22,959 nt of DNA from IMG/VR virus record IMGVR_UViG_2526164691_000026; one strand, written 5' to 3'. A program made the position numbers. Positions 9,001 through 15,000 of this stretch are shown here, in pieces (positions within the stretch are counted from its first letter, which is position 1; every line of letters starts with the position of its first letter). This stretch comes from a virus (lineage: Duplodnaviria; Heunggongvirae; Uroviricota; Caudoviricetes).

Positions 9001-12000
9001 TTACTGACCGTCTGTGTGATTTCATTGCGGGTTTCGGTGATGGTGGTCTTCATCTCCGCCATCTCATCCGCAAGCTGGCTGTTGTCTATCAGCTCCCACA
9101 GCCCCTGAGCCAGATGCAGTTTTCCTATTTTTTCCCGAAACAGTCCCAGATACCCTTCTGCATCATTGCTGGCCCGGCCACTGGCTTCCACAAAAGCAGA
9201 TTTCCCCACCAGGTTGACGCTGCGCACGTAAAACCAGAAATCCTTCCCGGGCTTAATGTGCGGGCCGGATACACTCCACTGACTGCCGGTCCCCAGATAA
9301 CGGGCAGAGGTTTCCACCTGAGATATGTCTGCGATTTTTGCCTCCGAAAACCAGAACTCAAACTGTACCGTCGGGTCATACACCGCAAGACGCGGGACCG
9401 CTGTTATCTGAAAATAGCCCGGTGTCAGCTCAATCGTGGCGGGTACCGCAGGTGCATTAATCCTGAACGTGGTGGTGGCCGGTTCGCCCTGCTGGCCATA
9501 ACTGTTAATTGCCCTGACTGTCAGGGTGTATTCCCCGAGCGGCAGACCACTGAAACGATGCTCTGTATCCGCAGTGATGGCGGTGGTCACCAGACGGCTG
9601 TCTTCTCCGCTTCCGCTGGTCAGGCGCAGACTGAAGCGCACACCCTTCACCACCCGCGGCGTGTCCCATTTCGCCTGTGCCAGATACTGACCGTCAGCCG
9701 CGCTCACCTCCACCGTCAGGTGCTGCACTGCCGGTGGAATAACGCTGTTCAGGGTGCCTGACTGCGGCTCAAAGCTGGCCCCGTTATCCACGATGGCTTC
9801 TTTTTCCGGTACGTGCTGCACCGCCGTGATGGCAAAGGTGCCGTCCGTGTTTTCCCGGACGGAGACACAGCGGAACAGGCGACGGCGCAGTGACGGCAGG
9901 GATAGTCCCCATACACCGTATGTCTCCACACCATCAGGCAGGGTACTGACCTGTATCCGGTCCGGCGCGGGGTGTGCAGTGATGGCCACGCTCACCGGCT
10001 TACCGCTGCCGTTAATCAGGTTCACCGTGGCGGCACCTGTCTCCGGCAGTGTCACCTCACGGTCCAGCGTCAGGGTGCGGCTGGCGGCATCGATGGACAG
10101 GACACGTCCGCCGGTCAGGGTCCCGGCATAGTCATTATCACAGATTTCAATAATGTCACCGGGTGTGTGCCGCAGCCCCTGAGACCCGAGCGTGAAATCC
10201 ACCGTCTGCGTTTCCAGCAGTTCGGTCTTTATCACCCACAGTCCGGCACGGTGGGCCTGACCGCGGCTGGTACAGCCGAACGCGTCCATCTTCAGCAGGT
10301 TGCGTCCGTAGCGCAGTATGGCTTCCGGGTCTTCCACCAGTTCCGTGGAGGTCTGCCAGCCGTTCTGCGGGTCGGTGTAATTCACCTCCACCGCCGTGTG
10401 CCGGTCCTTCAGGGCACTGAAGCTGTAGCGGAATCCCACGCCGTTATCATCCACCACCACATCGCTGTTGGTGTACGGCCACACCACATCCGACGGGCGG
10501 TCCTGAACGAACGTCAGCGTCTGACCGTTCCATACCGGCATACAGCGCATCGCAGAGCAGAAATCACTGAGAACGTCCCACGCCTTACGCTGTTGTGCCA
10601 GGTACGCATTAAAGGTCATCCGCGGCTCGGTCCCCCCGAAACCATCCGGGACCGTCTGGTCGCAGTACTGCCCGATGGCATACAGCGCCCACTTGTCCAC
10701 ATCCGCCGCCCCCAGACGTTTTCCCATGCCGTAGCGCGGGTGAGTCAGCATGTCCCACAGACACCAGGCCGGGTTGTTGCTGTATGCCGGTTTCAGACTG
10801 CCGTCCCAGATACCACTGTACGTGCGTTTTTCCGGGTCATAGTTTGACGGCACCTGGATGATGCGACCGCGGATATGGTAGTTCACCGTCATCTGCTGGC
10901 CGCCGAACTGCTCCGCATCCACCTGCAGCCCCACAATCGCCGTGTTCGGGTAGCACTGTTTCACATCGATGATTTCGGTGTATGACGACCAGAGCGTCTT
11001 ATTCTGCAGCTGGTCCGAGGTGCTGTCCGCTGTCTCCCGGACCATCCGGATGTTAAAGGGCCGCTCAGGCAGATTATCCAGAATCACCGACGCCAGAAAC
11101 TGCGAGGTGGTCTTGCCGTTAATGGTGACATCCTTTTCCGTCACCCAGTTACCGTTACGCTGTAACTGAATCAGCAGTCGGACGGATGTCGGGTTTCGGT
11201 CACCCTTTGACGTGGTCTGCACCAGTGACTGCACCCCGAAGGTGACCCGCAGGCGGTCAATGTTCGCGGATGTAATGGTGCGCGTCACCGGCTTTGCCTT
11301 CGTCACTTCCACGCCCAGTGCGGTTTCCGCCCCGGAGGACTCAAAGCCTTCAGGTGGTGTCTGCTCCTGCTCCCCGGCGCGCCAGACCGCTGTCACACCA
11401 TGTATCACAGGATTACCGTCCGTGTCCGTCAGCGGGGTTTTGTTCACCAGGATACTCTGCAGCCCCTTCACCGGACCTTCAATCGGCCCTTCACCAATGG
11501 CATCAATCACGCTCATCATCTGCGTGGACTTAAGATTGTCCTTTGCCTCAACCGGCGTGTGTGCCCTGCCGCCACCTTTACCCATAATGTTCCTCTCAAT
11601 TGGTATTATTAATCGCAGTGATAGGATATTGCACAGCTATTGCGCGATATCATCAGAACGCTGTTTGTTACCCTGTAACCAGCAAGCTCAGTCTGTTAAC
11701 GGAATTAATGAGGGTTTTATGAAATGTAAAATCATTGCTGCCATTGCCATGCTGACAGCAGCATCATGCGGATACGCAGCAGAACAGGAAGTCCCAATGA
11801 ACCTTGTCAGTGCTGACGGAAAAGAAGTCAGCATTGGAAAAATAACCATTCAGGAGACCCCCTACGGTCTGCTGTTCACACCAGCCCTTCACTCTCTGTC
11901 TGAAGGCATTCATGGTTTTCATGTGCACGAAAAAGGAAATTGCGCCCCGGCACTGAAAGACGGAAAACCGGTCGCAGCATTATCGGCTGGCGGTCACTTT

Positions 12001-15000
12001 GACCCGAAAAACACCGGCAAACATCTTGGCCCCTGGTCTCCGGATGGACACCTGGGCGACCTCCCTGCGCTGTTCGTGACGCATGACGGAAAAGCGAACT
12101 ACCCGGTCCTGGCCCCGAGACTGAACTCATTAAAAGAGATTAAAGGGCGTTCTCTCATGCTTCATGCTGGCGGTGATAACCATCATGACCATCCGGAGCC
12201 CCTGGGCGGTGGTGGTGCGAGAATGGCCTGCGGCATCATTCAATAATCAGTCAGGTAAGGGGCGGGCCCCTTACCTTTATTCCTCAGGACGATAAATCCT
12301 TTCTCCCTGAAAAGAACGGCACATCCTCCCTCTCTGAGTTAATGTTTTTGTCGTGACATAAGAATAATTCCTTACACTCAATCTTCGTAACTCTCCCGCA
12401 GTTCCTGTCCGTGAGCACTGCGGGATTTTTTCGCTTTTATGCCTGCCGCCCGATAACCACCACCTTCCCGTCACCGCCTTCATCACGGGTACTGATGTCC
12501 TGGGATATACGGCGGGAGCCAACCAGCATTTCACCGTAAGGCACCGGCATCGGGTTCCCCTGGGCAATCATGTTATCCAGCGAGGAAAAGTACGTGTTCT
12601 GTCTGCCGTTATCCGTGCTTTTGTACTCCGGTACTTTAGCCTTCGGGGCCAGCATCTGAGCCACACCACCCAGAATCATGCTGGCCCCCAGAGAAAACAG
12701 CATCGTGGTGGCAGAAAAACCACCGGCTGCCAGGGCTGAACCCCATAACGCCATTGATGCCCCGGCCGTGAAGAACGACCCCACGATGGCTGCCGCCCCC
12801 AGCACAATCTGCAGTCCGCCCTTTCCGGCTCCGGCCAGTCGCGGCACAATATGGATGACCGCCCCCTCACCCAGAGGTTCGTGAAGACGGGCGTACACCG
12901 CCTCCGGTGCCGTGTCCTCACCGCGAATACGTATCTGGTACCAGCCTTCGTTCATCTGACGGCGGAATCCCGGCACCTGTAACGACAGCGCCCGGATGGC
13001 TTCCGCTGCCGTGTTCACATACAGGCTGAGGCGGCGGCCAAATCGTTGCAAATCCCCGTGAAGGCAGATGCGTGCCAGTGGCGGTGACGCCAGACAGAAT
13101 GCGTTCGTCGTTGCCATTTTTCGGAATACCTCTCCCGTTTACTCAGTTGTTCAGGCAGATGGTGAAGCAGTTCACCGTTGCCGCAGTAAATGGCGGCATG
13201 ATTGGCCACCGATGCGCCAAAGCAGCACAGCAGGATATCGCCCGCCTGTGCAGAGGACAGGGGCACCCGGTAAAAGCCGGTGACCGCCATATTGTCCAGG
13301 TAAAGGTTCTGACCGTTGCGCCACCAGTCATCCTCACGCTCAAAATCCGGCATATCAATTCCCGCCAGATGGTAGGCATCCCGGAACAGCGTGTAACAGT
13401 CCGTCACCCCGTGCTCAAAGCGCCGTCCTGTCAGATGTGGCACACAGCGGAATTTATGAATTTCCCCCCGGCAGACCAGCCACCAGGACAGTGCACTTTT
13501 TATCTGCAGCCGCCGGTCGGCCTCGCTCAGCCAGGGCAGACCACCGGGATGACTGTGGACCAGTGTCACAATCTCCCCCTGCATCTCTGCCCGCAGCCAG
13601 TCTTCCGGTGCAATACGAAAATACGCCTCCGGCTCTGCAGAGATATTCACACAAGGGATATACCGCTCCCCCTCCGGCGTTCTCACCACGAAGCCGCACG
13701 ACTCCGCAGGCGCACACCGCCGGGCATGCGCCAGAATCGCTGATTCAGTCTGTGTCATAAACCGGGATTTACTGCGAAAGTTTATTAATGGAAAGGAAAC
13801 CGCCAAAATTAGCCACCATGCCGCGCATCTCACACCCGCGCATGCACTTGCTGCATCTGTCCTTACGGATATCGGTGATGGGTTTATCGAACTCATCCGC
13901 CACAGCCCCGCCCGTGTAACCACACTCATCAGAGCGGTAGGTCCACATACAGGTATTCGCCAGCATAATGCGACCGGGAAACAGCGCTCCGTCCGTCTCC
14001 GTCGGTGTTGCCAGCACAAACGAGGCTGTCATGGCCGTCAGCTCTGACATCTGCTCCACCACCCAGCGGTCGCTCAGCTCCTGCTCCGGGTCCGCTTCCG
14101 GATTGCCCGCCACAAAATTCACCGCATCCAGAAAACGGGCATACACCCGGCGGCGGACCACCGTGGCCCCCACCAGGCTCTGCAGGTCCTCCGCCATCCC
14201 GGTGACCAGACCAAAACAGATTGGACACCGTCAGCGACGGTCTGGCACTGCTGCCCTTCCCGTTCATCTCAAAACCGCTGCCGTCAATCGGGTATACCTG
14301 ATATTGCCGCCCCTGCCAGGTGACCGCCTCCCCTTTTTCATTCAGCTCATTACAGAAAAAATACCGCTCACCGCCCTGCACCGTCAGGTCAATTTCCCAG
14401 AGCACCACCCGCGGTGACTGCTCTGATTTAACCGACTCGTTCAGACTTTCTTCGTGAATATCCTGCATCAGTTCACCACCTGCTTAAACTCCGCGCTGAA
14501 TTCAACCCGCAGCATGCGAACCCGTGATGACCAGGCGGCACAGGTCACCTTTATCTGCCGCCAGGCATAAGGCGGTGTCCACAGAAACGCCTTCCAGCCA
14601 CCGTGCTCTGCCAGGAATGCCTCCAGATGTCGGGCCTCCTCCCGGGTCACGGAAAGCGTCACACGGTATGTTTTCAGGTCAGCATTCAGCCCCGCCGCCA
14701 TACGCTGCGAATACCCGTCACCAAAACGCACTTCACGCACCGATGGCTGCGAGTTCACCTCCATATCCGGCTTCACTTTCCAGCGAAATGTTTTCATCGC
14801 CTGCCTCCGGAAAAGACGCCGCCATCACGCATCTGCGCCTGAATCTCATCCTGCGCCCCCTTGCGGGCCATGTCATACACCGCCTTCATCAGCTGCGGCC
14901 CGCCTGTCCGTTGGAGCCGTCGTTCTGAATCACCACGTGATTGTTCTGATTAAAATTAATGCCTTCCGTCCGCCGCATCTGCGCCGAACTTCCGGCACCG

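Follow-up and report, generated by a model that had tools for sequence, protein, structure and literature searches.

Evidence for two stacked accessory elements, a sodC-F moron and the remnant of a PasB-type small RNA gene, between tail genes I and J of an Escherichia coli prophage

Introduction

The DNA examined here, the 22,959-nucleotide virus record IMGVR_UViG_2526164691_000026 (referred to below as the window), is part of the tail operon region of a lambdoid prophage whose host is an attaching-and-effacing Escherichia coli, and it carries a sodC gene for a periplasmic Cu,Zn superoxide dismutase between tail genes I and J. The closest described systems are the genes called sodC-F1 and sodC-F2 in enterohemorrhagic E. 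coli (EHEC) O157:H7 (D'Orazio et al. 2008, PMC2569942). Their products, SodC-F1 as well as SodC-F2, are present in both the exponential and the stationary phase of lysogens and, unlike the product of chromosomal sodC, are RpoS independent; in intracellular bacteria, SodC-F is enriched about 6.6-fold relative to chromosomal SodC (PMC2569942). The same study investigated the properties of the enzyme, which was obtained from these genes as an active, detectable protein. In O157:H7 strain Sakai, the two copies are ECs_1120 in Sp4, located between I (ECs_1118) and J (ECs_1121), and ECs_1989 in Sp10, located between ECs_1987 and ECs_1990. We found that the 851-bp gap between I and J is 99.9% identical in O157:H7 and the window, with the same I-sodC-J order, the same orientation and the same promoterless PasB-like segment. 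Nothing material differs except for the host strain (DEC9B) and the effector genes downstream.

Two Salmonella prophages offer more distant parallels. The sodCIII gene of Fels-1 (STM0924) also lies antisense between gpI and gpJ homologues, and a plus-strand hairpin with a T tract abuts the I stop codon. Unlike the window, Fels-1 has no PasB-like segment and carries a hairpin in the tail direction between sodCIII and J, and the two proteins share 60.5% amino acid identity. The sodCI gene of Gifsy-2, an established virulence factor, likewise encodes a prophage-borne periplasmic SodC and is antisense to the tail genes, but it is located between gpL and a lom-like gene, has unrelated flanks and specifies a protein with 58.8% identity. 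The position of sodC in the window, which the initial annotation had called unusual, is therefore shared with Fels-1 and resembled by Gifsy-2. In the definition of Hendrix and colleagues (see PMC4104026 and PMC7067206), a moron is an extra gene in the late region that has its own promoter and terminator and an atypical base composition and is expressed from the repressed prophage. An antisense placement in the late region is typical of such accessory loci (PMC7067206).

A second group of described elements concerns the DNA between sodC and I. PasB, an Hfq-dependent RNA, was mapped to NC_011601 1466343..1466261 on the minus strand (Pearl Mizrahi et al. 2021, PMC8550237, Table S6). EcOnc22 (Sp15), EcOnc23 (Sp14) and EcOnc24 (Sp11) were obtained from O157 Sakai by Hfq cross-linking and analysis of cDNA (CRAC); they are about 85 nt long and destabilized in a Δhfq mutant (Tree et al. 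2014, PMC4104026). On Northern blots, PasB and EcOnc22 are seen as Hfq-dependent RNAs of about 83 to 85 nt (PMC8550237, PMC4104026). The segment 12331..12431 of the window agrees with these small RNA (sRNA) genes in I-J location, strand, terminator and body blocks; it differs in lacking the TTCACA-16-TATAAT promoter.

Results

Two accessory elements probably share the I-J gap. The list of open reading frames (ORFs) and a Pfam scan place the gap between J and I at 11586..12436, and an annotated locus of strain DEC9B that is 100% identical to the window allowed RefSeq annotation to be transferred. In agreement with the initial annotation, which had reported a gap of about 850 bp with a plus-strand sodC gene and its own ribosome-binding site, the gap measures 851 bp and contains sodC preceded by GAGGG. 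We consider it highly probable that the gap consists of two stacked accessory elements, namely the known sodC-F moron and the remnant of a resident PasB-type sRNA gene. The features are as follows.

8112..11585, minus strand: gene J, tail tip and host specificity (1157 aa, seven gpJ Pfam domains, gpJ in RefSeq at the DEC9B locus)
11586..11718, plus strand: sodC upstream region (39.8% G+C), presumed to hold the sodC promoter; the J Shine-Dalgarno sequence lies on its minus strand
11719..12246, plus strand: sodC of the sodC-F type, periplasmic Cu,Zn superoxide dismutase precursor (175 aa, RefSeq WP_000649829.1 at the identical locus)
12253..12282, plus strand: hairpin 1, candidate intrinsic terminator of sodC (stem AGGTAAGGGG/CCCCTTACCT, 4-nt loop, TTTATT)
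12283..12330: cassette-specific distal tail, absent from sodC-less relatives
12331..12337: deletion junction with a TCTCTG(A) direct repeat; 78 bp are missing between 12337 and 12338 compared with the STEC299-type arrangement
12331..12431, plus strand: promoterless PasB/EcOnc22-24-type sRNA body and terminator, assigned by homology and by the same position and strand as PasB
12394..12402 and 12417..12425, plus strand: 9-bp stem of hairpin 2, followed by T6 at 12426..12431 and abutting the I stop codon
12437..13117, minus strand: tail assembly gene I (Lambda_tail_I, 3.2e-15; "tail assembly protein" in RefSeq)

The I-proximal segment is probably the remnant of an sRNA gene

In sodC-less relatives, the I-J gap normally holds an sRNA gene, which has a sigma-70 promoter close to consensus, a body rich in AU that measures ~85 to 100 nt and a hairpin followed by a T run. 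The gene is antisense to the tail operon, and its terminator abuts the I stop codon, as is also the case in the window. Our promoter scanner detected the sRNA promoter in three relatives with 10 to 11 of 12 consensus positions; it reads TTCACA-16-AATAAT (10/12) in Stx1a phage 1602 and TTCACA-16-TATAAT (11/12) in enteropathogenic E. coli (EPEC) E2348/69. Segment 12331..12431 of the window shares 98% identity with the copy of phage 1602, which has the promoter, 71% with EcOnc22 and 68% with PasB, and it retains all blocks conserved in the family: the U run, AA.AA.AA.UCC, AUCUUC and the invariant terminator stem.

The published coordinates of PasB map to the I-J gap of E2348/69, in antisense orientation, with only 5 nt between the end of the sRNA and the stop codon of I, and the PasB Northern probe matches the gap element at 23 of 23 positions. 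EcOnc22, EcOnc23 and EcOnc24 are all located in sodC-less I-J gaps of Sakai. Their coordinates refer to NC_002695.1; once they are moved by about +128 to fit the present version (.2), as calibrated on the AgvB match, the peaks fall on the sRNA body. The published EcOnc22/23/24 probe, which does not depend on this calibration, falls on the antisense strand in the body just 5' of the terminator and thus rules out the J-proximal placement suggested by the uncorrected Table S2 coordinates. The positions in our comparison loci are as follows.

L012, 2363..2397: EcOnc22/23/24 site (Sakai)
L013, 1344..1378: EcOnc22/23/24 site (Sakai)
L014, 1294..1328: EcOnc22/23/24 site (Sakai)
L011, 1262..1344: PasB (E2348/69)

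EcOnc22/23/24 and PasB are homologous, occupy the same I-J locus and are 74% identical. Judged by their sequences, they are one sRNA family that has been described twice under unrelated names; Table S6 of the PasB paper gives EHEC homologues for PasA and PasD and none for PasB (PMC8550237). Neither PasB nor EcOnc22 has an Rfam family, and no meaningful Rfam match was obtained for the whole window at gathering thresholds or for 11400..12700 at E values up to 10. The anti-sRNAs AgvB and AsxR as well as PasA, PasC and PasD were ruled out as occupants of the I-J site, being positioned at the PR'/lysis region. The annotated 5' end of the 83-nt PasB RNA (L011 1344..1366) lies ~15 nt downstream of the start predicted from the 11/12 promoter, which would be explained by 5' trimming of a primary transcript of about 98 nt or by an only approximate end in the transcriptome sequencing (RNA-seq) data.

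A deletion probably removed the sRNA promoter

The promoter scan found no counterpart of the sRNA promoter in the window, which we attribute to a 78-bp deletion. Among 5,426 complete E. coli genomes, which form the basis of all genome counts given here, three (STEC299, CFIAFB20120266 and CFSAN004176) combine sodC, the additional 78 bp and the sRNA promoter; the records of this STEC299 type are CP022279, CP076706 and CP014583. A TCTCTGA and a TCTCTGC flank the extra DNA of these genomes, where the window has a single TCTCTGA. The deleted form is found in ~545 genomes versus the 3 that have kept the promoter. In the simplest history, sodC would have arrived next to the sRNA gene on its J-proximal side, which produced the arrangement of the STEC299 type, and a deletion between the TCTCTG repeats would then have removed the promoter, leading to the form now common in E. 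coli. This order, insertion first and deletion second, is the one that the sequences suggest.

The Hfq peaks listed by Tree et al. include the three Sakai copies that have a promoter, but not the Sp4 and Sp10 copies linked to sodC (PMC4104026). The missing peaks are consistent with silencing, but they are weak evidence because the study filtered out sites close to annotated ORFs, and small ORFs had been placed there in the old annotation.

The PasB-like segment might alternatively still be functional. Transcripts passing the imperfect sodC terminator would then have a long 3' untranslated region that reaches to the sRNA terminator, and RNase E-type processing would free from it a PasB-like, Hfq-binding sRNA under the control of the sodC promoter. 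This would agree with the intact body, with its 98% identity to promoter-bearing copies and full set of conserved blocks, with the interrupted U tract of hairpin 1 (UUUAUUCC) and with the fixation of the deleted form in ~545 genomes. However, the near-identity among these genomes is too recent to demonstrate selection, and the absence of an Hfq-CRAC peak at the Sp4 and Sp10 copies, with the caveat about the filter, also speaks against it. We regard continued function as unlikely. It is likewise improbable, and in our estimate slightly more so, that the capture of sodC and the loss of the promoter rewired the sRNA, leaving it only as a processed product of the 3' untranslated region in sodC read-through. 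If this were true, an Hfq-dependent regulator would have become coupled to the conditions that induce sodC-F, which are stationary phase and intracellular growth.

Extent and spread of the sodC cassette

The initial annotation treated the whole of 11586..12436 as one self-contained cassette, comprising promoter, sodC and two terminators, inserted between otherwise adjacent I and J. The short I-J gap of lambda and the presence downstream of sodC of two hairpins that are terminator-like on the plus strand only are in keeping with this idea. For the I-proximal 106 bp, however, it is refuted: more than 700 E. coli genomes have 12331..12436 but no sodC, and the same DNA forms the 3' part of an sRNA gene whose RNA has been detected by experiment. 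Nor are I and J adjacent in the nearest sodC-less relatives, which have gaps of 235 to 343 bp (240 bp in Sakai Sp11, Sp14 and Sp15). The sodC-less Stx1a and Stx2c phages have ~130 bp of unrelated DNA in the place of the cassette; homology restarts at 12331 and runs through hairpin 2 into I, with 98% conservation of 12331..12436. A single cassette spanning the entire gap is thus very improbable, and relatives with part of the gap DNA but no sodC are, in part, the very finding that the initial annotation had named as speaking against it.

Because more than 700 genomes carry 12331..12436 alone, we place the sodC cassette at 11586..12330 (745 bp). Hairpin 2 (12394..12431), as the terminator of the resident sRNA gene, belongs to the phage backbone and lies outside the cassette. 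Of the two terminators that had been thought to insulate the cassette, hairpin 1 can accordingly be kept as sodC's own, and hairpin 2 has to be reassigned to the PasB-type gene. The left border of the gap coincides exactly with the J start codon, and homology to sodC-less phages stops right after its CAT (ATG on the minus strand). Since the J Shine-Dalgarno sequence lies in cassette-specific DNA, the exchange point on the J side is placed at the 5' end of J or inside it.

The 851-bp gap DNA is present at ≥99% identity in ~545 of the complete genomes, and the serotypes that carry it include O157:H7, O145, O111, O45 and O55:H7. The tail module as such occurs in 1,706 E. coli genomes. Among 151 related phage records, sodC is present in 2 and absent from 149. 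The cassette is identical at 745 of 745 positions to that of Stx2a phage EH2201, whereas the adjoining ends of J and I are ~90% identical, and the cassette is therefore either moved or kept as a unit. Its G+C content is 50.5%, compared with 57.3% for J and 60.4% for I. The low G+C content and the identity of the cassette agree with a module being spread through recombination between mosaic tail regions. We detected no donor of SodC-F among GTDB species representatives, which yielded only chromosomal SodC proteins with at most 69% identity (from Serratia, Pseudomonas and others). A mobile unit in common with Fels-1 sodCIII or Gifsy-2 sodCI was rejected, as the homology scores of the flanks fell within the range of shuffled sequences. 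Because the flanks have no detectable homology and the proteins are only about 60% identical, the shared I-J location in E. coli and Fels-1 points to independent capture.

The sodC gene is a textbook example of a phage moron: it is absent from this junction in close relatives, has its own plus-strand terminator and deviates in base composition. The proposal of a foreign, antisense and independently expressed candidate for lysogenic conversion is supported by its absence from all but 2 of the 151 phage records, its lower G+C content and the lacZ and protein data from O157 lysogens (PMC2569942).

In ST131 strain 5392 (L007 2267..2500), the gap measures 343 bp and contains a different J-proximal insert, with the PasB-type promoter unchanged downstream of it. 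The gap thus has a variable slot in its J-proximal half. A hairpin in this insert appears to be bidirectional (CCCCGGTATC...GATACCGGGG, with A/T tracts on both sides).

The sodC gene, its product and its promoter

The true start of sodC is the ATG at 11719, within the ORF that ends at 12246, and its Shine-Dalgarno sequence GAGGG occupies 11710..11714. The product has a full-length match to Pfam PF00080 (Sod_Cu; 3.9e-32, profile positions 3 to 133 of 133), and bacterial Cu,Zn superoxide dismutase structures in the PDB match it at 1e-56 to 1e-62. In alignments with 1z9n and 1z9p, the metal-site motifs HGFHVHE, GGHFDP, GHLGDLP and HAGGDNH are identical, as are the disulfide cysteines in GNCAP and MACG. 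The N-terminus is hydrophobic, and the PDB structures align only from residue ~22 to 25 onward; the mature SodC-F protein is given as 155 aa in the literature (PMC2569942). From family membership and the published near-identical O157 genes, SodC is predicted to be exported to the periplasm, where it would remove exogenous superoxide. That sodC is instead silent cargo or a pseudogene remnant without consequence for the host, as the lack of a predicted consensus promoter and the defective state of many sodC-carrying prophages might suggest, is extremely improbable given the intact ORF with all family motifs, the 100% conservation of the cassette while its flanks diverge and the active protein made from near-identical O157 copies (PMC2569942).

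Scanning 11000..13200 for sigma-70 promoters at a threshold of 9 of 12 consensus positions returned no consensus promoter in that interval. The promoter expected by the initial annotation in 11586..11718 therefore found no match at 9/12, and a relaxed scan gave only 8/12 candidates with an extended -10 element. The first candidate combines a -35 element TTGGTA (11600..11605) and a 16-nt spacer with TGn-TAGGAT at 11619..11627 (TGaTAGGAT); the second has the extended -10 element TGGTATTAT at 11601..11609. On this basis the sodC promoter probably lies at ~11600..11627. The O157 sodC-F copy offers a parallel, as lacZ is expressed from a 299-bp fragment of its upstream DNA without dependence on RpoS (PMC2569942). 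A PhoP-box-like half site, TGTTTG at ~11665, was seen by eye and dropped, as the second half-site matches poorly. The initial annotation had also taken 11586..11718 for a region with divergent promoters that sodC shares with J. The latter, however, is part of the late operon, and only its Shine-Dalgarno sequence (GAGAGGAACATT, 11586..11597, minus strand) is located in the gap.

Hairpins and transcription across the gap

A terminator scan of both strands agreed with the earlier report of two plus-strand hairpins with T tracts; on the minus strand, both hairpins lack such a tract. Hairpin 1 starts 7 nt past the sodC stop codon and forms a perfect 10-bp stem (stem-loop 12253..12276) followed by an interrupted T tract. 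Its folding energy is -17.9 kcal/mol with z = -1.7, a value that is marginal as a fold statistic alone. It is kept in STEC299 with one change in the loop. Hairpin 2, 118 nt beyond this first terminator, has a folding energy of -17.3 kcal/mol and z = -2.4. In total, 11000..13200 contains 7 terminator-like sites, compared with 2.5 ± 1.7 in shuffled sequences.

In the lysogen, sodC would be transcribed from its own promoter antisense to the late operon, by analogy with the near-identical O157 copies. Its transcripts are expected to end mostly at 12276..12282, and read-through would stop at ~12431, before entering I in antisense orientation; the sRNA terminator would thus serve at most as a back-up behind sodC's own. 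It is well established in lambda that Q-modified polymerase reads through terminators. Late PR' transcripts probably cross the 851 nt of untranslated antisense DNA toward J, carried by Q-antiterminated polymerase, because neither hairpin terminates in that direction and the modified polymerase would ignore terminators.

The sodC-less relatives and Fels-1 have a strong terminator-like hairpin in the tail direction directly upstream of J, at the following positions in the comparison loci.

L002, 3328..3351, minus strand: tail-direction hairpin
L011 (E2348/69), 1431..1454, plus strand: tail-direction hairpin
L005, ~4871..4890, minus strand: tail-direction hairpin

Terminators in the gap are therefore evidently tolerated. 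For the same reason, the concern of the initial annotation that hairpins acting in the minus direction might block J expression is moot, and the test it had proposed on this point is not decisive. One such hairpin has the sequence ACAGGCATCC-TCCG-GGATGCCTGT followed by TGTTTTTGTG; it lies within the late operon and is missing from the sodC form in the window. These tail-direction hairpins could keep transcription that lacks antitermination from entering J in lysogens, or they could terminate a convergent transcript.

Several observations weigh against our interpretation of a moron with its own promoter and terminator next to a silenced sRNA remnant. The position of the sodC promoter is inferred from candidates none of which reaches the consensus threshold, and the promoter could sit partly in J because the published 299-bp fragment takes in 166 bp of that gene. 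The efficiency of termination at hairpin 1 may be limited, given its interrupted U tract and a z value of only -1.7. Because the annotated PasB 5' end lies ~15 nt downstream of the predicted start, the start of the sRNA could fall within the retained segment and depend on signals that were not recognized. Finally, the order of events is read from three rare genomes, and recombination could instead have produced their form.

Relation to published work

The sodC finding itself is already known, as the gene has been characterized in O157:H7 and the same junction is used in Fels-1. sodC is a documented accessory gene of EHEC and EPEC prophages; in Salmonella, the corresponding genes are established virulence factors. 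What appears to be new relative to published work is modest: the decapitated PasB-type gene in the gap, the unification of EcOnc22/23/24 and PasB in one family and the rare, ancestral-looking arrangement in three genomes. A 2026 survey of PasB does not mention sodC. The outcome is a useful correction at the level of annotation rather than a surprise.

The I-J junction of this lambdoid tail module emerges as a site where cargo is found recurrently and where the gene of an Hfq-dependent sRNA is normally present. As the sodC-adjacent copy is promoterless in about one-tenth of complete E. coli genomes, BLAST counts of PasB-like sequences could score copies that are not expressed. Sakai offers a natural comparison within one strain between Sp4 and Sp10 (sodC positive) and Sp11, Sp14 and Sp15 (sodC negative).

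Flanking and other genes of the window

The longest ORF of I, with 226 aa, shares ~100 nt with the end of K. RefSeq places the start at an internal ATG, giving 193 aa (12437..13018) and a 4-nt overlap with K; the I stop codon is at 12437..12439. K, identified upstream of I by the Pfam scan, is a JAB/NlpC-P60 protein. A 96-aa minus-strand ORF at 12277..12567, which overlaps I and the sRNA remnant and has no Pfam match, is regarded as spurious.

The left part of the window carries genes of type III secretion system (T3SS) effectors, and the annotation of nleC is that of RefSeq at the identical DEC9B locus.

~1..600: 3' part of nleC, a T3SS effector gene split by an insertion sequence of the IS3 family (window 1..2323)
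~612..1840: transposase gene with a programmed frameshift
~1931..2323: 5' part of nleC
2577..4949, minus strand: NleL-like effector (790 aa) with pentapeptide repeats and SopA central and C-terminal catalytic domains

RefSeq names the product of 2577..4949 a T3SS effector HECT-type E3 ubiquitin transferase; its gene lies downstream of the tail fiber genes. Two adjacent short ORFs with a 4-bp overlap occupy ~4999..5588 on the minus strand, one of them coding for an NleG-family protein of 71 aa and the other (5210..5587) for 125 aa without a Pfam match; the pair looks like a frameshifted or truncated nleG. The tail region has a second accessory gene directly downstream of J, which codes for an outer-membrane protein of the Ail/Lom family (7446..8045, minus strand) and, as in lambda, has the sense orientation.

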